A stretch of 18,664 nucleotides of DNA from Bdellovibrionales bacterium (GTDB lineage: Bacteria; Bdellovibrionota; Bdellovibrionia; Bdellovibrionales; UBA840), in the NCBI GenBank assembly GCA_037969075.1, contig JBBKWS010000095.1, positions 1-18,664 on the forward strand, written 5' to 3'. A program made the translations under genes and the position numbers. The notes under the pieces are model-generated. The model had not been told where the DNA came from. It searched no databases and saw only the letters and a program-made list of their open reading frames with translations. Of this stretch, positions 734 through 18,664 are shown piece after piece (positions within the stretch are counted from its first letter, which is position 1; every line of letters begins with the position of its first letter).

Positions 734-909
734 GCTGAGATCACTTAAAAAGTAAGTTTTCTGAGCAATTCTAGAAAATATTCATGCCAAAAATGATCAA
801 AAAATAAGCTTTCATTGAACCGTTAGATCGATAGAGATACGCCTAAAAATTATTCTTTTGTAGAGATAATAAGCACGTGTTACCAATAAGACATCAGGGG
901 GGAAGTATT

Positions 910-1593
910 ATGAAGTTAATAGTTCTATTGTGTTTAGTGTTTTCGGGTATAGCTCAAGCCGAGTCAAAAGTAGATAACAATCTATCTTGCCAACCTTATA
1001 GTAATGGATGGCAAGCTTACAGTCACCTAAGCCGCAGCTTTTTAGGAAATGGATTTTTTTATTCTAGAAACGATTGCAATACAGCCATCACAAATTCTCG
1101 CGGTGGATATGTTTGTGCGGCCCAATCGGGCGGAGGCATCATTGCTGATGTTGGTAATGGCAGACAAATTGGAAACGGATATTTTGTAAACTTCTATGAT
1201 TGCTTAAGCGCAGTTAGTAGAACCAGACATCAAGCAATTTGCGCCCCACAAAACGGTGGCTTGATTACTTACTCTAGAAGATTTGGTCAACTTGGTCAGG
1301 GCATTTGGCAACAGCTCAATGCATGCCAACGAACGATAGATCAAGCGCAAAATCGTATTATCTGTGCTCCACAATTTGGCGGCAGTATAATGATGAATTT
1401 AATAAATGCCGTTCAAATTTCTACCGGCTATTGGACCAATACTGAAGATTGCATCCAAGCCTCTCGTGTTGTAGTTAATGGTGAAGTTTGCGCTCCCTAT
1501 GGCGGTGCGGTAACAATTGCTAATGTAAATACAGGTGAAATTATTGGTGGTCGTTATTACTCTATATACGATTGCCAATCAGATTTAAAGTAA
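910..1593 (+). CDS. Secreted cysteine-rich tandem-repeat protein (5 repeats of about 42 aa), function unknown
   Basis: ATG at 910 follows GGGGGGAAG and is preferred over the track start at 877. Signal peptide MKLIVLLCLVFSGIAQA. Five repeats of the form C-[AQ]-[PA]-x-x-[GN]-[GA]...G-x-G-[YF]-[FWY]-x4-D-C. Confidence 0.8.
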   Translation: MKLIVLLCLVFSGIAQAESKVDNNLSCQPYSNGWQAYSHLSRSFLGNGFFYSRNDCNTAITNSRGGYVCAAQSGGGIIADVGNGRQIGNGYFVNFYDCLSAVSRTRHQAICAPQNGGLITYSRRFGQLGQGIWQQLNACQRTIDQAQNRIICAPQFGGSIMMNLINAVQISTGYWTNTEDCIQASRVVVNGEVCAPYGGAVTIANVNTGEIIGGRYYSIYDCQSDLK

Positions 1594-1605
1594 GATAATT
1601 ATTTT

Positions 1606-1624
1606 AGGGGTGTTAATCGCCCCT
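1606..1624. terminator. Possible bidirectional terminator hairpin between convergent genes
   Basis: AGGGGTG-ttaat-CGCCCCT inverted repeat (one G-U pair on the plus strand) between the stops at 1593 and 1624. The U-tracts are poor. Confidence 0.4.
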
Positions 1625-2301
1625 TATAATTTACTTGTAATCCAGTCTTTGAAGGCTTTATTTAAATCATCTATCTTACAATATGTCTTAATATAATCTT
1701 CCATCTTTCTCTCTACACTAAGCCTTATTAAGTTATCTAGTTTGCACTTTTTATCTAGCATCTCTGCGAATGCCTGTGAGGCTTTATATCGATACACTAT
1801 ACCACTAACACTCCCACTTTGCGGATGTGCTAACTCATGAAAATCTTTAATTGCGGGTTGTGCTGCTAACCACTTATAATTGACGGGCTCGGTCTTTGAA
1901 AGATGATTTGCTAGCCCCTCTTCGAACCATTTAGGAATAGCACTCTTATATTTTTGATAAACAATTACATGTACTAGCTCGTGACCAAATAACTTATCAA
2001 AGTTGTCTGTTGTAACACTTGGACCAATTAAAATTGTGGCCTCACCATTTGTATATTTTGTTACTGCGGCAGCACTTGGCCCTAGGTTGTGAGCATTTTC
2101 AAAACTAGATTTTGTAGTAAACCATTGTACTTTTACTCTTCTTGTAGACCACTCTAACTTATGTTGAATACGGCCGGTCACTCTTTCGACACGTGGGCTC
2201 TTTAGCCAATCTGGTGCACCTTCGATAATGACGGCATTTGTACGCATAACATTGCCATAACTAAAATGCATATAAGAAAATAGTAAAAATAAAAGTGTCA
2301 C
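1624..2301 (-). CDS. Secreted gluzincin-type (clan MA) zinc metallopeptidase-like protein
   Basis: GTG start with AGGAG RBS and a hydrophobic N-terminus. HELVH (HExxH) is followed by PKWFEEGLA, the third-ligand Glu motif. Confidence 0.75.
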   Translation of the reverse strand: MTLLFLLFSYMHFSYGNVMRTNAVIIEGAPDWLKSPRVERVTGRIQHKLEWSTRRVKVQWFTTKSSFENAHNLGPSAAAVTKYTNGEATILIGPSVTTDNFDKLFGHELVHVIVYQKYKSAIPKWFEEGLANHLSKTEPVNYKWLAAQPAIKDFHELAHPQSGSVSGIVYRYKASQAFAEMLDKKCKLDNLIRLSVERKMEDYIKTYCKIDDLNKAFKDWITSKL

Positions 2302-2361: not shown

Positions 2362-3303
2362 CTACTTTATGTCAGACTTAAACTTTGGATGATTAAAGTG
2401 CAATCTGTGGTCACAATTTTCACCGGCAAATGCTTGTGTGTAGGTGATTGTTCCTACCGGAAAGAACTTTTGCTTTTGAAAAAACGAAGTATTCTTTGCC
2501 TCTCCAGCAACTTCAATATTAAAAACTATCTTTCCTTTTTCATTAATGTTTTCGATAATTTCATCTCTAAAATCAACGGCTTCACTAAAATCAAAACCCT
2601 CGGCACCACTTAATCTCATCCATTTAGGTGTGTGAACATCTTCAACTTCTTCATTCATTTCTGAGATTTGATACAACTGTCTGATACCTGGATTTTTATC
2701 TGTTACTACAAACACTCCCGCTACAAACGCTGCCACATCAGCAATAAAAACTGATCCCAATCGCACACTGACCTTAGGTTCGTTGGTTAATTTTGCCCCC
2801 ATAAATTTTGGTTCTTTTGTACCACCTAAATCATCTATCGTAAAAAAGTTTGCTGTCTTTAGTTTCTTAGTGTGCATAAAATTAGAGGTTGGGTAGATCT
2901 TACCCGTTAAACCAAAGCCCCTATACTCTCCTCGCTCTGTATCAGACAATGCTACTGAGGCACGAGATATAATCACTGCCTTAGTTCCTTTGCGGTATAA
3001 TCCAGAATATGGGTTTTCTTCAGAAATTTTCCAAGTACCTAATAAGCATATTCCATTAGGATGAACTAACTTTTCAAAATACGGTAGGATATCTGACTTA
3101 TCATCGATGGTTCGGTTTGCCGATTCACTAAGCGCATTGACCCCCCAGCGAGTGAGCCTTGCCATATTTACTTTCTCTTGCGGTAGTGTTGTGTAAGCAC
3201 TGTCAGTAACTACATCCCACACCTCGCTGGCGATTGAGCCCTCATAATTTGCATTAGCAAATGGACCCGTAAGAATTAAAGTCAACAAGACGAAGTGTTT
3301 CAT
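2362..3303 (-). CDS. Secreted catalase-fold (catalase-related) protein, C-terminally truncated
   Basis: Signal peptide MKHFVLLTLILTGPFANA. EKLVHPNGICLLGTW ... IISRAS ... RGFGLTGKIY aligns by eye with the catalase motifs ERVVHAKG.GA.G.F ... ARFS ... RGFALKFY. Confidence 0.55.
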   Translation of the reverse strand: MKHFVLLTLILTGPFANANYEGSIASEVWDVVTDSAYTTLPQEKVNMARLTRWGVNALSESANRTIDDKSDILPYFEKLVHPNGICLLGTWKISEENPYSGLYRKGTKAVIISRASVALSDTERGEYRGFGLTGKIYPTSNFMHTKKLKTANFFTIDDLGGTKEPKFMGAKLTNEPKVSVRLGSVFIADVAAFVAGVFVVTDKNPGIRQLYQISEMNEEVEDVHTPKWMRLSGAEGFDFSEAVDFRDEIIENINEKGKIVFNIEVAGEAKNTSFFQKQKFFPVGTITYTQAFAGENCDHRLHFNHPKFKSDIK

Positions 3304-3424: not shown

Positions 3425-4111
3425 ATGGGTGAGTTAAATCAGACTAAATCTTGTGGAAATTGCGGTGCCTTCACCAAAACAAATTTTTGCGACTTGAGCC
3501 AGTCGGCTGTTGCAGTTTTAGATAAATACAAAATCCATTCAAAGTATAAAAAAGGACAAGTCTTATTTAACGAAGGAAACACCCCTGTAGGCCTATACTG
3601 CATTAGTGCTGGAGTCGTAAAAGTAGTCAGCCAAAACGAAAACGGACAAAACATTCTTTTACGTCTTGTAAAACCTGGAGGAGTTCTGGGATACCGCTCA
3701 CTTTTAGCTAGTGAGCCTTACCATGGCACAGCCGTAGCACAAGAAGACACTCAGCTATGTATTATACCAAAAGAAGCTATCTTTTCACTTCTAATTGCAG
3801 AACCAGTTTTAGCCTTAAAATTCCTGTCACAAATTTCAAAAGAACTTCATATTGCAGAGGCGAGAATGCTGGGTCTTATCTCAAAACCAGCTGCGGCAAG
3901 AGTCGCTGAAGCTCTACTTATTTTAAAAGACTGTCTAGATAGTACAAAATGGACAAGACAAGATATCGCTGAGTGGGCTGGAACAACCACAGAAACTGTT
4001 ATCAGAACGCTAGCTAACTTTGAAAAGAAGCACTGGATTAATCAGACCGGCAGAGAAATCAATATACTCAGTCATAAAGATTTATTAGCACAAGTGAATC
4101 CTGACGTATAA
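3425..4111 (+). CDS. Crp/Fnr family transcriptional regulator, Fnr-like (probable Fe-S oxygen sensor)
   Basis: N-terminal C-x2-C-x9-C (SCGNCGAFTKTNFC), a cNMP-like beta-roll (KKGQVLFNEG, GVVKV, PGGVLG), a central Cys in QLCII and a C-terminal HTH TRQDIAEWAGTTTETVIRTL. It lies next to the cbb3 operon. Confidence 0.9.
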   Translation: MGELNQTKSCGNCGAFTKTNFCDLSQSAVAVLDKYKIHSKYKKGQVLFNEGNTPVGLYCISAGVVKVVSQNENGQNILLRLVKPGGVLGYRSLLASEPYHGTAVAQEDTQLCIIPKEAIFSLLIAEPVLALKFLSQISKELHIAEARMLGLISKPAAARVAEALLILKDCLDSTKWTRQDIAEWAGTTTETVIRTLANFEKKHWINQTGREINILSHKDLLAQVNPDV

Positions 4112-4774
4112 TTACGGAGGGCTACAAAACAAAAGGCTTGCTGAACTTTTATTTTTTGCACCTGATACTTCGGGTTTATAGAAATGCATAATAACACTCA
4201 TATTAAATAGTAAAAAAACGACTACTATTTTTATGTATCTGTTATTAATAACATGGCTCAAACTAGATATTCTAAATCTAATTTGCTTTATAAAGAAAAT
4301 CGGAACTGTGCCCACCCAAAAAATAAATACAAGAATCAGAAGTGGAGCTATCTTAATCTCTCTACTAAGAGAGTACAAAAAAAGGCTTAGCCAAGCACAT
4401 GGCAATAACCCCGTAAAAAATCCTCTCAAAAATACTCCTCTGATAAACTTAGGAGTAGATGGCACTTTACAACAGCCGCCATTTAACTCCTTAATTACTG
4501 AATATGTAATGTATGCTAGAAAAAATAGACCAATACCTATGCGCAAAAAAAGAACAGTATCAGTTAAAAGTATTAGAGCATGGGTGAGTATCGCCAAGCA
4601 GAAGTAGGCGAGTAGTCTTCCGGTGTGATAATACTTCATATTTTTTATGGAAATATTATAAGTAAGTGGCAAACACATGACTGCACAGTGCGGACTCCCA
4701 ACCAGACTTAGAAGTAAAACTAAAAAAGGAAGGGCCGCTGACGGTGCACCAATAGAGTTAATTAGGTCCAACAA
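4112..4774 (-). CDS. DsbD_2/TauE-SafE-like membrane protein of cbb3 oxidase assembly clusters
   Basis: Motifs SPHCAVMC and GLLPC, plus FWVGTVP and several TM segments. The likely start is TTG at 4774, after AGGAGA-TTAATC and overlapping the ccoG stop, rather than the track start at 4825. Confidence 0.8.
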   Translation of the reverse strand: MLDLINSIGAPSAALPFLVLLLSLVGSPHCAVMCLPLTYNISIKNMKYYHTGRLLAYFCLAILTHALILLTDTVLFLRIGIGLFFLAYITYSVIKELNGGCCKVPSTPKFIRGVFLRGFFTGLLPCAWLSLFLYSLSREIKIAPLLILVFIFWVGTVPIFFIKQIRFRISSLSHVINNRYIKIVVVFLLFNMSVIMHFYKPEVSGAKNKSSASLLFCSPP

Positions 4775-6170
4775 GATTAATCTCCTGGCTAAGCTGAACA
4801 TTGGTGTGCTCACCTGATACGTCAAAGCTTATTGGAATTATAATTTTCTTTTGGGAGCCAAGTAGTTCTTTTTTAAATTTAATAATAAATGAGAAATTTG
4901 TGCTGGAATTTTTTTGAATCTTTACACTGTTTACTGGAATGATCACCTCAACTGATGGCGGTAACACACTTGCACTCATCGTATAATTTAACTCTTCAGT
5001 CCCTTGATTATGTAAATGCAGAGAGATGTGATTGATAATTTGCTTAGACCCGTCACTTAGTGTTTGCTCTACGTAGGGTGCTGATGATTTTCTTAACAGA
5101 GTGATCGCGGCGACTTGATGCTGCCTTAATGAAAAAATAAGAGCACCCGATAGTAAAATGATTAACATTACATATATAATAACCCTAGGGGTTATTAGTT
5201 TTTTCTTAAGACTTATGTCGGTTTTACTTATCAACTCTTCTTCTGATGCATACCGAATCAAACCTACTGGTTTTTTAACTTTTGTCATAATATCATCGCA
5301 AGCATCTATGCAGGCGGTACAACCTATGCACTCCATTTGTATACCACGTCTGATATCAATTCCTGTTGGGCAGACCTCTACACACCTTCTACAGTTTACA
5401 CAATCCCCACGACTTCCCATCGGAGCCAAACCTTTGCGTGGCTCCCCACGGTTATAATCATACAAAACTGTTGTAGTACTAGAATCCATAAGTACTGATT
5501 GAAACCTACCGTAGGGACAGGCGATAATACAAAATTGCTCTCGAAACCAACCAAAATCAAAAAGCAACAATAACGTCATGCTCAGAACAATTAGAAATGC
5601 AGTTTTATTTTCCTCAGGACTTCCTTGCATCATCTCTAGCAAGCGTTCACTTCCAACAAAATAAGCTACAAAAGAATGTGCAATCACAGTAGACACAATA
5701 ATAAAACAAATCCATGTTAGACCTAGCTTAATAAATTTTTCTAAACCCAAAGATTTAGCCTGCAGCTTTCTTCGCTTAAAATATTTACCCTGGATCATAA
5801 CTTCGATCTGTCTATATATTGCATCTATAAATACCGTTTGCGGGCAAGCCCAACCGCACCAGATGCGGCCAAATACTGCGGTCACTGCAGCTAGCCCTAT
5901 CCCACCAATAGCCAGTAATAAAAATAACATTGGGGCATCGTGTGACTTTAATAAAATTCCAAAAAATATAAATGTTCTGTTTGGTATATCCAGTAAAATT
6001 AATTGCAGGCCATTCCAATGAACCCAAGGTACTGCCAAAAATACACATAGCAATAATATATGAACCACAGTGCGATAGCGTCTAAAAATTCCCTTTACCT
6101 CTGCTGGGTGAAGAAACAATCTTCCCCCAGACTCATCAGTAGTACCAAGACGCTCATCACCCAAAGACAT
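4758..6170 (-). CDS. ccoG: Cytochrome c oxidase accessory protein CcoG (FixG), 4Fe-4S cupric reductase
   Basis: GRIWCGWACPQT, FREQFCIIACPYGRFQS, CVNCRRCVEVCPTGIDIR and ECIGCTACIDACD. Confidence 0.95.
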   Translation of the reverse strand: MSLGDERLGTTDESGGRLFLHPAEVKGIFRRYRTVVHILLLCVFLAVPWVHWNGLQLILLDIPNRTFIFFGILLKSHDAPMLFLLLAIGGIGLAAVTAVFGRIWCGWACPQTVFIDAIYRQIEVMIQGKYFKRRKLQAKSLGLEKFIKLGLTWICFIIVSTVIAHSFVAYFVGSERLLEMMQGSPEENKTAFLIVLSMTLLLLFDFGWFREQFCIIACPYGRFQSVLMDSSTTTVLYDYNRGEPRKGLAPMGSRGDCVNCRRCVEVCPTGIDIRRGIQMECIGCTACIDACDDIMTKVKKPVGLIRYASEEELISKTDISLKKKLITPRVIIYVMLIILLSGALIFSLRQHQVAAITLLRKSSAPYVEQTLSDGSKQIINHISLHLHNQGTEELNYTMSASVLPPSVEVIIPVNSVKIQKNSSTNFSFIIKFKKELLGSQKKIIIPISFDVSGEHTNVQLSQEINLVGPN

Positions 6171-6718
6171 TAGTCTTTCACCTCTACTCCTTCTGGTCCC
6201 TTGGCTCCAGCAGGAGTACTCCCCTTAAGGCTCAATACAAATGCAACCACAGAGGCTTGCTCAGAAGGATTTAGTATAGACTCCCACCCAGGCATTCCCT
6301 TTTCTGGCACTCCTTTTTGTACAGAATGAAGTACATCTTCAGGCTTTCCAGTGCCATGTATCCAAAAATTATCTGTAAAATTGGGTCCTATAAGACCCTG
6401 CCCCTTGTCTCCATGACACATATAACATTTTTCAAAATATATTTTTGAACCAACTTGTATGAACTCTTCATTTCCAACTGCAGATGCCAAATCTATTGCC
6501 TCGGAACTTTCTGACTGTCTCATCTCGGTTAATTGTGCAATACCGACAGCTAGTTCTTCATCGGTTGTTGGGCCGCTATGCGATGTGTAGTGTAGATAAT
6601 AAATCATCGAGTAAATAATTGAACCCAAGAAAATTGCAATCCACCATCTAGGTAAAGGGTGATCATGCTCAATGATCCCATCATAATGTTTGTTTGAGTT
6701 ATCGTTATCTTCAGTCAT
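6170..6718 (-). CDS. ccoP: cbb3-type cytochrome c oxidase subunit III (monoheme CcoP)
   Basis: N-terminal HYDGIIEHDHPLPRWW, one TM helix, a single CYMCH heme site, GPN and GMPGW (axial Met). AGGAGG RBS. Confidence 0.92.
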   Translation of the reverse strand: MTEDNDNSNKHYDGIIEHDHPLPRWWIAIFLGSIIYSMIYYLHYTSHSGPTTDEELAVGIAQLTEMRQSESSEAIDLASAVGNEEFIQVGSKIYFEKCYMCHGDKGQGLIGPNFTDNFWIHGTGKPEDVLHSVQKGVPEKGMPGWESILNPSEQASVVAFVLSLKGSTPAGAKGPEGVEVKD

Positions 6719-6881
6719 TACTGCCCTCCTTGTTTAAGGGAATGTTTGACATTCTTTTGATATAATTTGGATCAGATTTATATACACAAATGATCATGTA
6801 AACAAAGAAACTGAAAAAAATAACAAGCCCTATTAAAGTAAGCCAAGTGTCTGTAAAAAATAAAAGTCCTTCTTGCTTCAT
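6711..6881 (-). CDS. ccoQ: cbb3-type oxidase small subunit CcoQ (56 aa; not in the ORF track)
   Basis: Manual translation gives MKQEGLLFFTDTWLTLIGLVIFFSFFVYMIICVYKSDPNYIKRMSNIPLNKEGSND*. ATGA overlap with the ccoNO stop, one TM helix, the MSNIPL tail typical of CcoQ, and the canonical position between ccoO and ccoP. Confidence 0.88.
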   Translation of the reverse strand: MKQEGLLFFTDTWLTLIGLVIFFSFFVYMIICVYKSDPNYIKRMSNIPLNKEGSND

Positions 6882-8998
6882 TTTTTCCCCTTTTGCCCTA
6901 AAGCCTGCAGATAAGCAATCAGTGCCACAATTTGTTTTTCTTCTAGCTTATCTGTTTCTATTCCCTGCAGTCTTAAGTCTGCAGCAATAACCTTAGCTTC
7001 TTCAATCGCAATTAGATCTGCGCGACTCAGCTCTTCATCTGTATAGGGAACGCCGAGTTTTTGCATTACCGAAAGTTTCTTACGCAATATTAAAAAATCA
7101 GTGCGACTGGTGAACAGCCAAGGGTAATTTGGCATAATTGATCCTTGTGATGTGGATCTAGGATCTAACATATGTTGAAAATGCCACATATTCGGATATT
7201 TTAAACCTAATCTTGATAAGTCAGGGCCCGTACGCTTAGAGCCCCATTGAAAAGGACGATCCCACATAGACTCTTCAATCGTCGATGCAGCTCCATACCG
7301 CAAAACTTCTGCAGGCAACTTACGAATCATTTGTGAGTGACAGGTATAGCAACCTTCTTTTACATAGATATCTCTTCCAGCCAGTTGAAGAGGAGTAAAA
7401 GGATCTGTAATCTTACTAGGCTCTACATATTTATGTAGAGATAACGTTGGAACAATTTCGATAATCGACCCAACAGCAATTGCAATAAATGACAATACTG
7501 TGAAGGTAAATCCCATGCCTTCCAGCTTTTTATGCCCCGTCTCTTCACCAACATCACTATCTATCGACATGGAAGTAGTAACCTCGGTGTCTTCTACTTT
7601 GTTTGGTGCTAATTTAATTGTTTTATAAATATTGTAGACCATTACTAAAAAGCCTATGAAGAATAATAAACCCCCGCCAGCTCGCACCCAATATAGTGGT
7701 ACAATCTTTGTCACTGTCTCGATAAAATCAGGATAAACCAGTCTTCCTGTTGAATCCACCGCAAGCCACATTAGTCCCTGTGTAACCCCCGCAGTTACCA
7801 TCGAAATATAATATAATAAAACACCAAATAACCCGATCCAAAAATGAGTGGTCGCTAGCTTTAAGCTATATAACTGCGTTCTCCACAACCTTGGGACCAA
7901 ATAGTAGATCATAGCAAATGTTAAAAAGCCATTCCAACCCAAAGCACCTGCATGTACGTGACCAACAATCCAATCTGTATAGTGACCCACAGCTGACACA
8001 CTTTTAATAGAAAGAAGCGGTCCTTCAAATGTTACCATTCCATAAAATGTAATGGCAGCAACCATGAATTTAACTAGAGGATCATCTCTTAATAGATGCC
8101 ATGCCCCACGCAAAGTTAAAAGACCATTGATCATTCCACCCCAACTTGGCGCCCACAGCATTAATGAAAATATCATTCCTAATGTTTGAGCCCAGTCAGG
8201 CAAAGCAGTATATAGTAAGTGATGGGGACCAGCCCAAATGTAAATAAATACTAATGACCAAAAATGTATAATAGAAAGCCTATAAGAATATATAGGGCGG
8301 TTAGCAATTTTTGGCATGTAGTAATACATTAAACCTAAAAAGGGCGTTGTTAAAAAGAATGCTACGGCGTTATGTCCATACCACCACTGAACCAAGGCAT
8401 CTTGAATACCCGCATACACCGGATAACTTTGAAACCAACTGACTGGTAACTCTATTGAGTTAACTATATGTAGTACAGCGACAGTAATAATCGTTGCAAT
8501 ATAAAACCAAATCGCGACATACATATGCTTTTCACGTCGCTTTTTTATCGTACCAAAAAAGTTAACAGCAAAGACCACCCAAATCAAAGTAATGGCAATA
8601 TCAATAGGCCATTCTAACTCTGCGTATTCTTTTGATTGGGTGTAGCCCAATGGTAAAGTGATGGCTGCTGCCACAATAATTAATTGCCAGCCCCAAAAAT
8701 GAATTTTACTTAAGGCATCTGAAAACATCCTTGCCTTTAAAAGTCTCTGTGTTGAGTGGTAGATACCCGCAAAGATAGCGTTACCAGCAAAAGCAAAAAT
8801 TGCGGCATTTGTATGTAATGGTCGCAATCTACCAAAAGTAATGAATTCAGAATTAAAATTGAGTGGCCAATAAGCCAACTGCAAAGCCGCTAAAAGTCCA
8901 AACAACATTGCGGCACATGCCCAGATTATCGTTGCTATAACAAAATTTCTTACGATCTTATCATCGTAAAAAAAACTTTCAACTTTTTCGCTTATCAC
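6878..8998 (-). CDS. ccoN: Fused cbb3-type cytochrome c oxidase subunits I/II (CcoN-CcoO)
   Basis: CcoN motifs FGRLRPLHT, WWYGHNAV, WAGPHHL and GHVHAG, then CcoO motifs EGCYTCHSQMIR, WGSKRTGPDL and SIMPNY in the same frame. The likely start is GTG at 8998, after AAGGAG-AAGTCA; the track start is 9022. Confidence 0.95.
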   Translation of the reverse strand: MISEKVESFFYDDKIVRNFVIATIIWACAAMLFGLLAALQLAYWPLNFNSEFITFGRLRPLHTNAAIFAFAGNAIFAGIYHSTQRLLKARMFSDALSKIHFWGWQLIIVAAAITLPLGYTQSKEYAELEWPIDIAITLIWVVFAVNFFGTIKKRREKHMYVAIWFYIATIITVAVLHIVNSIELPVSWFQSYPVYAGIQDALVQWWYGHNAVAFFLTTPFLGLMYYYMPKIANRPIYSYRLSIIHFWSLVFIYIWAGPHHLLYTALPDWAQTLGMIFSLMLWAPSWGGMINGLLTLRGAWHLLRDDPLVKFMVAAITFYGMVTFEGPLLSIKSVSAVGHYTDWIVGHVHAGALGWNGFLTFAMIYYLVPRLWRTQLYSLKLATTHFWIGLFGVLLYYISMVTAGVTQGLMWLAVDSTGRLVYPDFIETVTKIVPLYWVRAGGGLLFFIGFLVMVYNIYKTIKLAPNKVEDTEVTTSMSIDSDVGEETGHKKLEGMGFTFTVLSFIAIAVGSIIEIVPTLSLHKYVEPSKITDPFTPLQLAGRDIYVKEGCYTCHSQMIRKLPAEVLRYGAASTIEESMWDRPFQWGSKRTGPDLSRLGLKYPNMWHFQHMLDPRSTSQGSIMPNYPWLFTSRTDFLILRKKLSVMQKLGVPYTDEELSRADLIAIEEAKVIAADLRLQGIETDKLEEKQIVALIAYLQALGQKGKK

Positions 8999-9155
8999 TG
9001 ACTTCTCCTTGCTTAAAATCATTATCTTCTAAAAGTAGTAACGGTGGCGTGTCAAGATCATCAAACTGACCTGATTGATTCGCCTTAATAAAGCACCATA
9101 AAAAAAATACGGCCAAACCAAACGCTAGTGGAATTAAAATCACAATTATATTCAT
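8979..9155 (-). CDS. ccoS: cbb3-type oxidase assembly protein CcoS (FixS)
   Basis: MNIIVILIPLAFGLAVFFLWCFIKANQSGQFDDLDTP matches the CcoS signature (TM helix + SGQFDDL). The ATG at 9155 overlaps the ccoI stop as ATGA. Confidence 0.92.
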   Translation of the reverse strand: MNIIVILIPLAFGLAVFFLWCFIKANQSGQFDDLDTPPLLLLEDNDFKQGEVSDKRKS

Positions 9156-11230
9156 TTCATTATCCAAAGAGTATTGCATATTAATACTAGCGAGCTAATG
9201 GGCATTAGTATAGCCGCCGCCAATGGATTGATAAACCCGAGCAAGGCCAAAATACCCGCCAAAGAGTTATACACAAAAGATATTGTCATATTTGAAATCA
9301 AGCATTTGCGTAGTCGTTTGGCAATTGTAATCAAGTGAGGTAAAGACGAAATCCCGCCATTTAAAAAATACACATCTGCCTGCTCTAAACTTAAACTAAC
9401 GTTACCCCTAGTTGATATTCCTACATCGGCGCCTTGTAGGGCCAATACATCATTAATACCATCACCTATCATAATTGAGTTTTTATGATTCTTTATGATT
9501 TTTAGTTTTTCACTAGGGGTCTTGTCTGAAAAAATCCTATCCTTTGGAATATTTAACTTACTTCCAACTTCCAACGCATTCATCTGAGTGTCGCCAGTCA
9601 ATAGATATAGTCTTTTATCTTGCAGCTTTTCAATAGAGCCATAAGTCATTTCTCTTATTTGATCTTCAAATGCATAAGATACAATCTTTAGATTGTCAGC
9701 GTACAGATCAACAATAATTTTATTAGAATTATTGCCACTTTTTTTTAATTGATAAAATACTCCATCAATTGCACCTTCAACGCCAATGCCTATATTTTCT
9801 TTAAAGCCACTTACCGGTAAATCCTTAAACTCTCTCCCCCATGATTTTCTGAAAGCAAAGGCTACAGGATGAGAAGATGTCTTTTCTAGATTTAAAATAA
9901 TATTAGCGTGTTCCGCGCCCGAATCAGTGATTAGTTCTAGTTGACCGTAGGTCAACGTGCCCGTCTTATCAAAAAAAATATTTTTCACTTTATTAAGTTT
10001 ATCAAAAATATTTTGCTTTTTAACAAGAATGTCTGCTCCTCTGGCTCTATGTACTGCCATAGCATAGGCAAGAGGTGTCCCCAAGGCCAACGCGCATGGG
10101 CACGCAACAATCAACAGGGCAAGAGATCTTTGAAACCCCTCTAGAGGATTTATTGGTAAGTAATATATAAAAAATAAAATCGCAACAGTGAAAATAGTGA
10201 AAATCAAATAGTGCGAAGCCTTATCTGATGCTTGAGAGAACGTACCCTTGGTCTTCTTTACCTCTTCAACTTTTTGAATCAATTGGTATAACTGACTAGT
10301 TCTAAATGAGTTAATTGCTTTTACTACAACGCCCTCTGATAACGCTATACTCCCGCTTCCTAACTCCATATCACTATTGAATACTCTTGGTAGGGATTCA
10401 CCGCTAACAAATGATGTATCAAATTCAGCATATGGATTCACTAACGTAGCATCCACGGGTAGCACCATGCCTTGCCTTAAATAAAACTGATCCCCTTTTT
10501 GTATATCTTCCGCCTTAAAGGATACGCCTGTCTCGACTCTGATATATTTCGCGCTATTTACTTGATCGTATAAATTATCAACATAAACATAGTGCTGTTG
10601 TACCCGTCTTAAGAGATACCTAGATGTCAGTATTAAAAAAACAAAGCTAGCGGTAGAATCAAAATATAAAAAATCATATTTTTTTATAAAAATATTGTAG
10701 CATGACAATACAAAGCCCGTAGTTAATGCAACCGCAATTGGCAAATCAATGCTTAATGTTTTTGTTTTTAGTGCGCTGAATGCGTTTTTATAAAAATCTA
10801 AAGAACAATATCCTAAAACTGGTAAAAATAAAAATAGACTCAGAAAAACGAAGGACGTTTTATAGGCGCCCTCTTCAACTCCTGTATATAGCGGAATTGT
10901 GAACAGCATGATGTTCGCTGTTAAAAACCCAGCGACAGCGAGTTTGTTTAATAACCTTTTATTTTCATTTTTTTCTAAAAGAAAGCCCTCCGACTCATTT
11001 TTCAAAAATTTGGCTGTAAATCCGATTTTTGAAATCAAGGCTGTTACTTCATCGACACTTACCTTTGAGTCAACCCTGGCCTCTAATAATGACTGACCAA
11101 AATAAAGGTGAGCATAATGTATATTAGGGTGCATATCTTTTAATTTCTCTAATTTTCCAATACAAGAATGACAACGAATTCCATCTATGTGAAATAGATA
11201 AGATGAAAGCGCTTCTTGTGCTTGTTCCAT
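9152..11230 (-). CDS. ccoI: Copper-translocating P1B-type ATPase CcoI (FixI)
   Basis: HMA motif GIRCHSC, SGES, ACPCALAL, FFDKTGTLT, SSHP, GDGIND and YN...MPISS. The ATG at 11230 has an AGGTGG RBS; the track start is GTG at 11239. First gene of the cco cluster. Confidence 0.9.
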   Translation of the reverse strand: MEQAQEALSSYLFHIDGIRCHSCIGKLEKLKDMHPNIHYAHLYFGQSLLEARVDSKVSVDEVTALISKIGFTAKFLKNESEGFLLEKNENKRLLNKLAVAGFLTANIMLFTIPLYTGVEEGAYKTSFVFLSLFLFLPVLGYCSLDFYKNAFSALKTKTLSIDLPIAVALTTGFVLSCYNIFIKKYDFLYFDSTASFVFLILTSRYLLRRVQQHYVYVDNLYDQVNSAKYIRVETGVSFKAEDIQKGDQFYLRQGMVLPVDATLVNPYAEFDTSFVSGESLPRVFNSDMELGSGSIALSEGVVVKAINSFRTSQLYQLIQKVEEVKKTKGTFSQASDKASHYLIFTIFTVAILFFIYYLPINPLEGFQRSLALLIVACPCALALGTPLAYAMAVHRARGADILVKKQNIFDKLNKVKNIFFDKTGTLTYGQLELITDSGAEHANIILNLEKTSSHPVAFAFRKSWGREFKDLPVSGFKENIGIGVEGAIDGVFYQLKKSGNNSNKIIVDLYADNLKIVSYAFEDQIREMTYGSIEKLQDKRLYLLTGDTQMNALEVGSKLNIPKDRIFSDKTPSEKLKIIKNHKNSIMIGDGINDVLALQGADVGISTRGNVSLSLEQADVYFLNGGISSLPHLITIAKRLRKCLISNMTISFVYNSLAGILALLGFINPLAAAILMPISSLVLICNTLWIMK

Positions 11231-11278
11231 TGCGACCACCTGAAGTAAGTATAATTAGCTATAAAATAGCATATTGAC

Positions 11279-11403: not shown

Positions 11404-12300
11404 ATGACAAATACCATACGAGTTGCCTCACTACAGTACTTTATCCGCCCCGTTCGCTCTTTTGATGACTTTGCCCTACAGGTCGAAGCATTGGTAGAAA
11501 CAGCAAAGGATTACAAAGTAAAACTTTTAGTATTTCCTGAATACTTTACTACGCAATTGCTGACTCTTGGCAATATCAAGCGCCCGATTGCAGAGCAAAT
11601 TAGGGACCTTGCTGGGCAAGAAGACAAAACCGTAGATTTTATTGCTGGTCTTTCAAAAAAACATAAGTTGATTATTGTTGGCGGAACACTTCCTGGATTT
11701 AATGAAGACAAAACTAAAGTTTTAAATAAGTGTTATGTGTTTTCACCAGATGGCAGTCAAAACTTACAGGCCAAACTTCATATGACTAGATTTGAAAAAG
11801 AAGAGTGGCTAGTTAGTTCGGGCTCACGCCTACGAATTTTTGAAACAGACTTTGGTAAATTTGCAGTAACCATTTGCTACGATGTAGAATTTCCTGAAAT
11901 TGCCAGAACCGCAGCCCGTCTTGGTGCGCAGTTTTTAGTAGTCCCTAGCTGTACAGATGACCGTCAAGGTTACTTACGAGTAAGATATTGCGCACAAGCT
12001 AGAGCTATAGAAAATCAAATGTATGTAATACACTCGCCTACTGTAGGATCTTTACCAACCGTACCGGCTGTATCTTTAAATTATGGGCAAGCGGCTATCT
12101 ACACTCCAAGTGATTATGCATTTTCAAGAGACGGCTTATTAGCCGAGGGCGCAGTGAACCAAGAGAGTATGATCATTGGTGAGATCAATTTAGGTCTTAT
12201 TGATGAAGCCAGAAAAAATGGTACTGTGTTACCTCTTCGAGATAGTCAAACTACAGAAGAACTACTGAAAGTGGTAGATCATGTCAGACTCTCCAATTAG
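11404..12300 (+). CDS. Carbon-nitrogen hydrolase (nitrilase superfamily), YhcX-like subgroup
   Basis: Catalytic triad E46 (VFPEYF), K124 (QAKLHMT) and C158 (ICYDVEFPE). VPSCTDDRQGYLRVRYCAQARAIENQ is typical of the GNAT-associated subgroup. Confidence 0.92.
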   Translation: MTNTIRVASLQYFIRPVRSFDDFALQVEALVETAKDYKVKLLVFPEYFTTQLLTLGNIKRPIAEQIRDLAGQEDKTVDFIAGLSKKHKLIIVGGTLPGFNEDKTKVLNKCYVFSPDGSQNLQAKLHMTRFEKEEWLVSSGSRLRIFETDFGKFAVTICYDVEFPEIARTAARLGAQFLVVPSCTDDRQGYLRVRYCAQARAIENQMYVIHSPTVGSLPTVPAVSLNYGQAAIYTPSDYAFSRDGLLAEGAVNQESMIIGEINLGLIDEARKNGTVLPLRDSQTTEELLKVVDHVRLSN

Positions 12301-15283
12301 TCGCACCTATGTATTAATTAACCCTCGACCAAAGCACTTCGAACAAATTCAAGAGCTTTGTAAGCGGGTTTATCCATTTTCAAAACCTTGGTCTCTAGAG
12401 CAGCTCGAGTCACACCGCGCTTGTTTTCCTGACGGACAATTGATTGTCGTCGAAGAAGAAACTGAAAAGGTAGTGGGTCTTGCGTTTAGTTTAATTGTTA
12501 TGTGGAACGATTATTCATCTCAAGATAACTGGAAAGATTTTACCTCTGGTGGTTTTTTTCATAATCACAATCCCAACAAAGGTAAGACTCTATACGGAGC
12601 AGAGGTAATGGTCGATCCTGAGTTGCGCGGTCAAGGTATTGGAAAAATGCTTTATCAGGGGCGAAAACAAATCGTTGAGAAATATGGACTCAAAAGAATC
12701 CGCGCTGGTGCTAGATTAAGAGGTTATGGGAAGTTTCAAGACAAGTTAGAACCAGACGCATATGTTAAGCAAGTGGTTGAAAAAAAGATATATGATCCAA
12801 CACTTAGCTTTCAACTCAATCAAGGGTTTGAGGTTATCGACGTTGCTCCTAACTATTTATTTAATGATCCTGAGAGCCTAGGTTATGCAGCCGTCATCGA
12901 ATGGCTTAATCCAAACACTGCCTCTCAAAAGGATATCGACAAGCAACAACACCGAATCAAAAACTTTTTAGAAGACGAAAAACTTGTATTAGAGTTTTTA
13001 CCACGAGAGCTTAGACGACTTGTCAGAAAAGCCACTCTTACCTTAGGGCAAATCATAAGAGAATCCGAAGGAGATAAGTTTTTTAGGCGGGTTGAATATT
13101 ACCGAGAGCAACTTAAAAAAACCAGAAAGACAAAAAGTAAAGAGCGCTTAATACAACTGCTAGCTGAGCTAAAAAAAGAAAGTAAGGCTGATAGACAAAA
13201 GCTAGCTCACGCATTTTCTTTACAATTAGAATTAGTTAATATTTGTGAAGCAGCATACAGAACCTGGAGACTTCGACAAAAGCCCATCACTCAAGGTGTT
13301 AAATCGAAATTAAGCCTAACCTACGTACTAACCGCCCATCCTACTGAGGCAAGATCAAAATTAAATGTAGAAATCTTAAATAAATTAGAAAAATTATTCA
13401 TAGATGCTATTCATGGTAATTTTTTATTTAATGATGATGAGCTATCTAGTAAAATGCGAATGATTTGGCTGCATCCGCTTTCGAAGATAAATACTCCAAC
13501 AGTATTGGATGAAGCTGAGTATATGTACTCTCTAATCTTTTCACCAGATTTGTTTGATTTTATATTAAGCGATAAGCCCAGCTATGATCTAAAGCTGCGA
13601 ACATGGGTGGGCGGAGACAAAGATGGTCACCCGTATGTAAATAAAGACGTAATGAAAGAATGTTTAAACCGATCTAGAACTTACATACTAGAAATAGTAC
13701 AAGAAAAAATCGAACTAGTTTTATCTGATTTAAATAAGCTAAAAGATTCTGGTAAAATTAAAAAAAGTGAAGTTGATGGACTCAAGTCCTTAATTATCGG
13801 TCTTAAAAAGTTACAAACTATCACTACAGGTGATGGTACAAAACTTAAAACATGGACCATGAAATATCATTCTACTTTAAAAGGCGCTGGAAAATTAGTT
13901 AAAAGACACTCACAGATTTTATTAATAAATCGATTACTAATAATGTTTCCCGCTTTTGTGTTTCCAATAGAGCTTCGGGAAGATGCGGGATTGATTAAAG
14001 ATGGGCTAAAAGATAACTCATCCGCTATCCGAGGAATGTTAAGTGAGTTGAGTAAGGCAGCTGGGGCTCTAGATATTACATCTTATGCTCGCGGCTTAGT
14101 CATTTCACATTGTGAATCTGCAGAAGACATCGAGAATGCTTGCAATCTCGTATACCAAGTAACCAAGAGAAAAACTCTACCCGTTATCCCATTGTTTGAA
14201 ACAAACAATGCCTTAGTTAACGCTAAGAAAATATTACGCAATTGGCTTAAAGAAAGAAAAAATCAAGACCTCGCCATTAGACAGTGGGGCGGAAGATTTG
14301 AAACCATGCTTGGATACTCAGACTCTTCTAAACAAACAGGGGTATTACCCAGTCGCTACTTAATAGCTAAAGCTATGGTAGAAATTGAAAAAGTGATTAA
14401 AAGCACAGGCATTAAACCTATATTTTTTCATGGATCAGGCGGAAGTGTCGCCAGGGGTGGTGGCAGCCTAAAAGAGCAAATTGCTTGGTGGCCAAATTCT
14501 GCCATAGATAATCCAAAGTTTACCGTACAAGGCGAAATGATCCAGCGGCAGTTTGCTACGAAAGAAATTTTAAATTCTCAATGTATCCATATGGCCAATG
14601 AATCCAGAAGAAGAAAGTTAAGGTCTGTACAACTTGATCAGAGCAAAGAGCTAGAAAATTTTGTAAGTTTGGTTCAAACTGAATATACAAAATTAGTTGA
14701 GAATGGACCGCTCTTAACTAAACTTTTAGAGGCCACTCCATATCGCTACCTAGATAAATTAAAAATTGGCTCTAGACCATCCAAGCGTCCTGGAAAAGTC
14801 GTGTCTTTATCAGCACTGCGTGCCATACCATGGGTGCTTTGTTGGACTCAATCCAGAGCCCTGCTGCCCACATGGTGGGGTGTTGGCGCTGCTTGGAAAG
14901 CCCTAAGTGTAGAAGAAAGAAAGAAGATCGTAGATCTATTTTCTACTAGTCCTTTTTTATCTTCTTTCGTAAAGGCCCTAGGATTTTCTTTGGCTAAGGT
15001 TGAGCTTGAGATATGGGAGCTTTACTTTGCTAAAAACGCAGATGACCAATTGTTTAAGGATTTAAAAAAAGAATATCTAGGTGCAATAAAATTCGTTTTA
15101 GAGGTTAGTCAGCAAAAAACTCTCATTTGGCATAGACCATGGCTTGAAGAAAGTATAAAACTTAGATCCTCAAATATTCACATTTTAAATTTACTTCAAA
15201 TTATAGCTATCAATGATGCAGACGAAACTTTATTAAAAGAAACTATCGTAGGAATTGCTTGCGGTATGTTAACGACCGGCTAA
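12281..15283 (+). CDS. ppc: GNAT N-acetyltransferase - phosphoenolpyruvate carboxylase fusion protein
   Basis: Residues 1-211 are GNAT ([53 protein letters not shown]). Residues ~240-1000 are bacterial-type PEPC ([82 protein letters not shown]). One uninterrupted frame. Confidence 0.9.
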
Positions 15284-17367: not shown

Positions 17368-18009
17368 ATGACTAATTTACCTCTAAGTAAACCTAGATTG
17401 CGTGGATACCTTCATCAAGAGGCTTTTTTTGTCGCGCTTGGCGCATGCATTTTACTGTTAGCAAAATGCGAAACTAAAACTCAGTGGGTTACATGTATAA
17501 TATACTCTTTATCATTACTAATACTATTTGGCATTAGTGCCATCTATCATCGTCCGCACTGGCAACCAAAGCAGAGAAAGTTTTTAAAACGATTAGATCA
17601 CTCTGCTATATTTATTGTGATCGCAGGAACCTTTACCCCCGTAAGCGTACTTTCTCTACCCCCTAACATGGGACTCACGCTTGCAGTCATCGCTTGGAGC
17701 TTCGCACTACTGGGAATAATACAATCTGTATTTTGGACTACCGCCCCAAAGTGGCTGACAGCTATGCTTTATATTGGCATGGGATGGCTGGCTTCACCAT
17801 TTTTAAGAGAGTTACATGATGGACTAGGATCTAATAGCTTAGCTCTAATTATTGTTGGAGGAGTTGTTTACACAATCGGCGCCGTATTTTATGCACTTAA
17901 ACGCCCAAAATTAAATCCAATAATATTTGGTTACCATGAGTTGTTTCATTTATTTACTATCATCGGAGCCACCCTACATTTTGTAGTGATCTATAAACTC
18001 ATAAATTAG
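17368..18009 (+). CDS. Hemolysin III family (PAQR/TrhA) membrane protein
   Basis: KPRLRGYLH, SAIYH, RLDHSAIFIVIAGTFTP, YIGMGW, GGVVYTIGAVFY and GYHELFHLF; about 7 TM segments. Confidence 0.93.
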   Translation: MTNLPLSKPRLRGYLHQEAFFVALGACILLLAKCETKTQWVTCIIYSLSLLILFGISAIYHRPHWQPKQRKFLKRLDHSAIFIVIAGTFTPVSVLSLPPNMGLTLAVIAWSFALLGIIQSVFWTTAPKWLTAMLYIGMGWLASPFLRELHDGLGSNSLALIIVGGVVYTIGAVFYALKRPKLNPIIFGYHELFHLFTIIGATLHFVVIYKLIN

Positions 18010-18664
18010 GTTTCAACGATCCAACTATCATGATCAGAAAACAGTGGCATAAAGATTTCATTGATCGCAAAGTCTTCATCAGAAAATAATTCGTATTGAG
18101 TAATGGCCATATCTGACAACGCATTATAAGCTTCGCACTTTTCAAAATACTCCGATTTTGTCATGCTTGGAGTTGGCATTTTACCGTGAACTTCTTTTTG
18201 TCCAAACAAAATGGTATCATAGCTATTACTATTAAATACCAGCGGCTCATAGGCAGTAAATCCAGAGGCAGATCCAAAGTTAGATCGGCTAAGAGGAGGA
18301 CGCTCGTTAAAGAGCTTAATGATTTCTTTCGCATCACCTATATCACAATTCTCTCTGCACCACTGCCAAAATTTAGTGTCTAATTTTTTATTAAACTTAT
18401 AGTGAACACCGATAAACGATCTGAATGTATCCCAAGTAGCGGCAATTTCTTTATTGATGGCGGTTATAGAACTAGTGTCTTTCAAAGAGTTAGGCATTAT
18501 CTTACAAAGAATCATAATGGACTGTATAACAGTTTGGATTGCAGTAGATTCAAGTGGCTCGATAAATGCGTATGCGTTTCCGAGAGAAAATACATTTTTG
18601 TTCCAAGCTAACTCGTGGCGCCCTGATTTAAAGTTTATGACCTTATGAGATTTTATATCTCCGA
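18006..18664 (-). CDS. Tryptophan halogenase family flavoprotein, C-terminal part (start lies beyond the right edge)
   Basis: The frame of track ORF 18006-18515 stays open to the edge: GDIKSHKVINFKSGRHELAWNKNVFSLGNAYAFIEPLESTAIQ ... WDTFRSFIGVHYKFNKKLDTKFW. The W.KN....G....F.EPLEST and HY......DT.FW motifs match the PrnA/RebH family. Confidence 0.85.
   Translation of the reverse strand, partial: GDIKSHKVINFKSGRHELAWNKNVFSLGNAYAFIEPLESTAIQTVIQSIMILCKIMPNSLKDTSSITAINKEIAATWDTFRSFIGVHYKFNKKLDTKFWQWCRENCDIGDAKEIIKLFNERPPLSRSNFGSASGFTAYEPLVFNSNSYDTILFGQKEVHGKMPTPSMTKSEYFEKCEAYNALSDMAITQYELFSDEDFAINEIFMPLFSDHDSWIVET

Follow-up and report, generated by a model that had tools for sequence, protein, structure and literature searches.

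Why would a phosphoenolpyruvate (PEP) carboxylase (PEPC), an enzyme that fixes bicarbonate and refills the tricarboxylic acid cycle, carry a GNAT domain at its N-terminus? This question is raised by an open reading frame (ORF) on contig JBBKWS010000095.1 (assembly GCA_037969075.1) of a Bdellovibrionales bacterium, within the 18,664-nucleotide (nt) stretch of DNA that was analysed as a whole and is referred to here as the window (Table 1). The fusion is almost certainly real, as is the membership of its GNAT domain in a module with the amidase encoded directly upstream. We tentatively propose, as quite possible rather than probable, a bifunctional enzyme whose GNAT domain works with the amidase in small-molecule acyl chemistry, coupled to oxaloacetate/aspartate supply.

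A sequence-only reading of the window had reported one GNAT–PEPC ORF of 1000 amino acids (aa) and this was borne out. The ORF is a single uninterrupted frame of 1000 codons in which Pfam recognised both Acetyltransf_1 (aa 23-142, 32.7 bits against a cut-off of 20.7) and PEPcase (340.8 bits, above cut-off), the latter spanning the remainder after the GNAT domain. The motifs named in that reading all lie where it had placed them, namely RGQGIG from aa 116, AHPTE (His353), LFET (Glu640), GYSDSSK (Asp681/Lys684) and LRAIPW (Arg847). An AlphaFold2 model of the fusion reached a pLDDT of 88.8 and a pTM of 0.81. A pair of overlapping genes, the second one starting inside the frame, was ruled out: no ATG, GTG or TTG codon occurs in aa 196-265, in agreement with the earlier report of a junction without an in-frame ATG, and aa 124-391 contain no Met. 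An assembly or read-through artefact was likewise ruled out by matching contigs and by the many homologues with both domains. A 44-kb contig spans 11416-15300 gap-free and a second spans 12216-13438, including the junction, with 0 letters different, and no stop or frameshift showed at the junction; both contigs come from one sediment sample, possibly the window's source, and are not independent of it.

Relatives with the same architecture were common. A homologue search with aa 1-420 of the fusion as query gave 124 proteins, 120 of them listed, and among the matches listed 93/120 had both domains (87 reaching the C-terminus), 21 were unfused PEPCs of 747-787 aa and 6 were partial or of other build. 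The fusion is therefore neither limited to this assembly nor always encoded as two genes in relatives, the outcomes that would have spoken against the sequence-only reading. A genome scan recovered 62 loci, 25 with the fusion, from Bdellovibrionota lineages except two labelled Proteobacteria. The fusion occurred in 13/221 genomes of its own order and in 14/301 genomes of the phylum, 4 of these outside the order; the order, phylum and locus samples overlap and related genomes are not independent. In a GNAT tree built from 82 of 139 rows, with database proteins thinned to every fourth, a single branch (SH-aLRT 88) separated the 45 fused rows from all others. A clade with support 100 in the PEPC tree, which used 68 of 130 rows, united 38 fused rows with 13 unfused ones; its two deepest branches were fused, and within it the state changed between fused and unfused 8 times, at least 6 of them forced by well-supported branches. 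One of the 13 nested unfused rows (P0101) may be a truncated call, and no GNAT remnant was found at the three unfused nested loci examined. As these history trees were rooted at the midpoint, one origin followed by repeated loss of the GNAT domain is the simplest reading, not proof. On the alignments and trees, the fusion is genuine, ancient and conserved. One further fusion gene (L037:1830-1884) has a frame break in its PEPC part and is either a pseudogene or an assembly error.

The sequence-only reading was right about the architecture and overlooked the gene directly upstream, a nitrilase-family amidase whose last 20 nt overlap the start of the fusion. Its translation contains the FPEYF, QAKLH and ICYDVEFPE motifs, which presumably supply the catalytic triad, and its nearest solved relatives by sequence are yeast YLR351C and Nit2. 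This amidase, 73-88% identical, lay directly upstream in 19/22 fusion loci with upstream DNA, and the remaining three fusion genomes had a 68-72% copy elsewhere. The association extends to GNATs that are not joined to PEPC, the nearest of which came from Acidobacteriota, Gemmatimonadota, Myxococcota, Verrucomicrobiota and others. Among 113 unfused GNAT loci examined, the same hydrolase was upstream in 93 of the 96 with more than 300 nt of upstream sequence, and the amidase adjoined the GNAT in 13/13 further unfused loci, with one pair convergent. The two domains were also fused to each other, in hydrolase–GNAT order in L045, L076 and P0099 and in GNAT–hydrolase order in L013-L015, and related genomes encode GNAT–amidase proteins of 513-524 aa (GNAT 34-39% and amidase 39-41% identical). 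Such nitrilase–GNAT fusions, which we take to be nitrilase class 12 or the B. subtilis YhcX type, contain the same two domains as the pair described here; in the window, by contrast, the amidase has its own gene upstream and the GNAT's fusion partner is PEPC. Long apparent amidase fusions in L047, L056 and L060 were rejected as upstream frame extensions in GC-rich DNA.

Presence and absence across the order followed the same pattern. Among the 221 genomes, an amidase of at least 64% identity was found in 12/13 fusion genomes and 5/5 unfused-GNAT genomes; a close GNAT was present in 17/17 genomes with a full-length amidase at that level, a close amidase in 17/18 genomes with a close GNAT, and the amidase was lacking in 3/3 genomes whose PEPC had lost its GNAT. 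Two genomes with an unfused nested PEPC had no amidase above 37%. What looks like a remnant of the module is present in a genome with an unfused PEPC (L087:5783-7153), where 66 aa with 91% identity to the amidase continue in frame into an MscS gene. Judged by gene order and co-occurrence, amidase and GNAT form a two-gene module across several phyla; it is widespread and previously uncharacterised.

Identity across homologues also shows the GNAT domain to be under stronger conservation than the PEPC, and its occurrence follows that of the amidase. Over 87 full-length fusions, mean identity to the query was 75% for the GNAT domain, 52% and 60% for the two halves of the PEPC part, and 35% for aa 211-240. 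The domain alone had a confident predicted fold, which Pfam and the predicted structure identify as a GNAT fold with the coenzyme A (CoA) pyrophosphate loop, and P113, G119 and Y125 of that loop are invariant across 86 aligned fusions. The junction had earlier been described as a charged linker of about 30 aa, but it is not mere linker: AlphaFold2 predicts a helix at 216-230, and aa ~212-232 resemble the C-terminal tails of unfused Bdellovibrionota GNATs (L080, L081, L048), consistent with the fusion of adjacent operon genes. A putative acceptor pocket is common to the fused and unfused GNATs. An ESM Atlas search with aa 1-225 gave unnamed GNAT clusters only, and the whole protein gave no usable match.

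By both profile and fold, the closest solved structures were the GNAT-like domains of CurA (2ree), GphF (6mfc) and SxtA (7uci), which share the same extended GNAT fold (Z about 22 with the next row at 17.2; root-mean-square deviation 2.3-2.5 over 193-196 residues; profile E 4e-8 to 7e-4). These domains are described as decarboxylases (PMC10127204, PMC11685415), which would suggest that the fused GNAT decarboxylates a malonyl-thioester or oxaloacetate. They are known from polyketide pathways, and no polyketide synthase context was seen for the fusion. The Thr/Ser, His and Arg common to all three, presumably their catalytic residues, are Ala144, Gln178 and Leu193 here and nearly invariant, making such an activity extremely unlikely. 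The next-best fold matches, N-terminal acetyltransferases at Z 16-17, raise the alternative that a lysine of the PEPC, or another protein, is acetylated by the GNAT and deacetylated by the amidase; in C. glutamicum, lysine acetylation is described as lowering PEPC activity (PMC8100219). Against this, the protein acetyltransferases score 5 Z units lower than the GNAT-like domains, with about 150 of 225 residues covered, and the amidase–GNAT pair mostly occurs without ppc. Nitrilase-family amidases, moreover, as a rule act on small molecules, and a writer–eraser pair of this kind is very unlikely.

The bifunctional-enzyme reading accommodates these observations as follows. The GNAT gene of an amidase–GNAT operon would have become fused in frame with a compact ppc lying downstream of it, once, in Bdellovibrionota. 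The PEPC domain would make oxaloacetate from PEP and bicarbonate, and the GNAT domain would bind a short acyl-CoA, most likely acetyl-CoA, and move the acyl group onto a small amine, most likely an amino acid or amide of the aspartate/glutamate family. The amidase would hydrolyse that amide or a related one, and the fusion would persist because the module takes from or supplies the oxaloacetate/aspartate pool; the acylated product might conceivably serve in salt or osmotic stress. GNAT retention follows the amidase, not the PEPC, which favours small-molecule acyl transfer over a dedicated sensor or a PEPC lysine acetyltransferase. Of the three roles that the sequence-only reading had offered for the GNAT domain, acylation of a small molecule tied to oxaloacetate or aspartate is accordingly the one now favoured, and acetylation of PEPC lysines and a dedicated PEPC sensor are both less favoured.

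Support for a tie between module and PEPC outside the fusion came from two lineages in which a canonical ppc stands near an unfused amidase–GNAT pair. In L078, and likewise in L079 of the same genus, it lies 30 nt upstream of the pair; the L078 enzyme is 24% identical to the compact PEPC and passes the NCBIfam cut-off. In the GC-rich L107, the ppc is two genes downstream and 32% identical to that of L078. A rough model over 115 loci gave 0.11-0.19 expected ppc genes in 556 kb of flank and a probability of 0.006-0.015 for two or more.

Several observations weigh against the proposed bifunctional enzyme. The chance estimate for ppc was made post hoc, and the metagenome scan had been seeded with the L078 GNAT. 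A ppc was near the unfused module in 3/115 loci and in 0/13 later loci; most unfused modules have none nearby, so the module needs no PEPC beside it. The repeated loss of GNAT from PEPC also speaks against a functional tie, and no neighbouring gene was constant among 138 scanned proteins, the flanks varying freely. Gln178 stands where, as we understand it, many GNATs carry a Tyr general acid, so the domain may not be catalytic. The amidase falls below every NCBIfam cut-off and is a distant relative of Nit2/Nit3, and the complete genome G088 carries the fusion without a close amidase, having a 39% GNAT–amidase fusion instead.

Some of these points suit a passive operon fusion, in which GNAT with amidase, and PEPC, each keep their usual jobs and the join only enforces co-translation. 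Besides the repeated shedding of the GNAT, this reading draws on the 64/221 genomes of the order (a count of survey rows) that have an unfused compact PEPC, and on the precedent of E. coli MadA (GNAT plus a hot-dog malonyl-ACP decarboxylase). MadA is a different enzyme, likened to the fusion by architecture; it too has an N-terminal GNAT on a metabolic enzyme also found unfused, and that GNAT is reported to have no documented effect on the fused decarboxylase (PMC8666670). However, the join has persisted across 45-71% whole-protein divergence with a near-constant junction length, the GNAT stays fused in the three genomes whose amidase gene has moved off, and there are the two further ppc–module linkages. 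We consider a purely passive join somewhat unlikely.

The best fold matches of the PEPC domain were the E. coli and maize enzymes. It has the same fold as E. coli Ppc (PF00311, 1fiy/1jqn; Foldseek E 1.7e-35, TM 0.74 on target) and is smaller, at about 765 aa against 883 aa for a protein that has no N-terminal GNAT. The catalytic-residue equivalents are kept: counted along the alignment, E. coli His138, Glu506, Asp543, Lys546, His579, Arg587, Arg699, Arg713, Lys773 and Arg832 correspond to H353, E640, D681, K684, H717, R725, R832, R847, K906 and R962, each kept in 98-101/101 fusions. H353, R566, E640, D681, K684, R725, R832 and R847, each present in 99-101/101, are presumably the catalytic His, metal Glu/Asp, bicarbonate Lys and PEP-binding Arg residues, and the active site is, on this conservation, intact. 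The four-residue aspartate site, which we take to be R587, K773, R832 and N881 in E. coli, is altered at one position: R725, K906 and R962 are kept, and the Asn is Thr998 in 95/101 fusions and in unfused compact PEPCs. Fused and unfused members also have Ser719 for E. coli Arg581 and a C-terminal MLTTG for MRNTG. Neither the NCBIfam Ppc equivalog PRK00009 (342 bits, cut-off 815) nor the archaeal-type model TIGR02751 (47 bits, cut-off 146) was reached, and archaeal-type PEPC is given as 55-60 kDa (PMC8100219). The unfused compact L084 scored 345 bits with PRK00009 and the canonical L078 883 bits; with fused and unfused members far below the cut-off, these enzymes form a compact, divergent subfamily, of which no description was found. 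The compact ~765-aa form ending GM(L/M)TTG, with Ser for Arg581, is the order's common PEPC (window 12989-15283, L005-L012, L084-L086). The fusion is the only PEPC found in its own genome (90% complete), where a 763-codon malic enzyme frame is present and neither the pyruvate carboxylase nor the ATP-PEPCK family was found.

An acyl-CoA sensor would connect the two domains directly: the GNAT would bind acetyl-CoA and switch PEPC allosterically, possibly besides its amidase job. Acetyl-CoA typically activates bacterial PEPCs (PMC8100219), and PanZ is a CoA-binding regulator with a GNAT fold (PMC3496974). A precedent, present also in Bdellovibrio, is the hybrid malic enzyme MaeB (malic enzyme plus a PTA domain), which likewise carries an acyl-CoA-binding transferase domain on an enzyme of the PEP–pyruvate–oxaloacetate node (PMC7902834). 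Its folds are unrelated to those of the fusion, and its PTA domain lacks catalytic residues and is a proven acetyl-CoA sensor, whereas the fused GNAT keeps an outside partner and has a putative sensing role. The intact CoA loop and missing decarboxylase residues fit such a role, as does a preferential change of Arg249, Ala724 and Leu961 where the GNAT was lost. Arg249 is present in 101/101 fusions versus 6/12 nested unfused PEPCs, and Ala724 and Leu961, beside Arg725 and Arg962, are altered in 4 of 6 and 3 of 6, respectively, of the lineages that lost the GNAT. However, these changes were not significant (8 independent pairs, median p 0.125-0.375) and were chosen post hoc from 220 columns, and, unlike a retired sensor, the GNAT retains its putative acceptor pocket and its tie to the amidase. 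A complex prediction for the GNAT (aa 8-232) with the PEPC (aa 236-1000) gave no answer (score 0.00) and counts neither for nor against. A sensor is unlikely. A broader version, which we regard as equally unlikely, is a PEPC with its own acyl-CoA switch, whose GNAT binds acetyl-CoA and either acts on the PEPC itself or produces an effector, an N-acyl amino acid, that the co-translated amidase erases, such make-and-erase control of anaplerosis replacing the usual allosteric sites in the compact subfamily.

Table 1 Positions of the fusion, its domains, its partner gene and the loci linking ppc to the unfused module.
Feature	Position	Strand	Basis
GNAT–PEPC fusion ORF, 1000 aa	12281..15283	+	Pfam domains, homologue alignments, AlphaFold2 model
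GNAT domain, aa 1-211; CurA/GphF/SxtA GNAT-like fold, conserved aromatic/acidic insert aa 75-100	12281..12913	+	alignment and fold match
CoA pyrophosphate-binding loop, aa 111-125	12611..12655	+	alignment; role as generally known for GNATs
Junction, aa 212-236: C-terminal helix belonging to the GNAT, constant length, poorly conserved sequence	12914..12988	+	identity, predicted helix
Compact PEPC domain, aa 237-1000, C-terminus GMLTTG	12989..15283	+	E. coli Ppc as top match in sequence and in fold
Nitrilase-family (carbon-nitrogen hydrolase) amidase, 298 aa, the GNAT's partner gene	11404..12300	+	Pfam CN_hydrolase, 114 bits
Canonical ppc with unfused amidase–GNAT, two lineages	L078:4260-8578; L079:1-2941; L107:4054-9794	-; +; +	

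The gene neighbourhoods gave hints of salt or osmotic stress, which we treat as a lead only. Recurrent neighbours among the 138 proteins were MscS channels, Na+/H+ exchangers, amino-acid permeases and AmpG-like transporters. By tblastn, the fetched flanks of 144 close-GNAT loci contained an MscS homologue in 20 (six of which had provided the query sequences), an AmpG-like transporter in 6, an exchanger in 5, a permease in 4 and trehalose synthesis genes in 3; for comparison, 3 MscS places were found over 2.5 Mb of the genome that carries the window's fusion. MscS, Na+/H+ exchanger, trehalose and AmpG-like genes recur beside amidase–GNAT across phyla (L017-L169, L198-L214). The downstream YaiI/YqxD gene was rejected as a member of the unit, being found elsewhere only in L027, distant and on the other strand. 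A scan for promoters and terminators came out at chance level (9 vs 12.0 and 3 vs 3.6).

Elsewhere in the window, positions 3425-11239 hold what reads as an unremarkable cbb3-type oxidase cluster with a divergent Crp/Fnr regulator, comprising a fused ccoN-ccoO (6878-9022), ccoP, ccoG, a ccoI-type P-type ATPase and a DsbD-like gene; the Pfam scan covered the ATPase and regulator. ORFs at 877-1593 (+), 1624-2301 (-) and 2362-3303 (-) have signal-peptide-like starts and no Pfam family, the first with Cys-containing repeats. Near the contig end, a 169-aa ORF (18006-18515, -) matches only the C-terminal part of tryptophan halogenase.

The sequence-only reading knew of no characterised GNAT–PEPC fusion, and no description was found in the open literature either (subscription journals were mostly outside the search and supplements were not covered); databases label the fusion proteins simply 'phosphoenolpyruvate carboxylase'. 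In its section 9, a review of the PEP node names four PEPC types without mention of a fused accessory domain, and describes post-translational control of PEPC in bacteria as little known (PMC8100219). The architecture is thus conserved and apparently undescribed, and suggests that carbon fixation and acyl-group chemistry are connected in a way not yet described. The family brings in a compact PEPC subfamily and offers a natural experiment: as fused, secondarily unfused and ancestrally unfused versions coexist, GNAT-dependent control could be read by comparison. PEPC and the recurrent osmotic-stress neighbours also give a first metabolic handle on the common amidase–GNAT pair. If true, a PEPC with detachable acyl-CoA control would be of interest for engineering carbon fixation and aspartate-family production. 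In the hosts of the fusion, a group of uncultured predatory-type bacteria, the anaplerotic enzyme is permanently joined to an acyl-CoA-binding domain.

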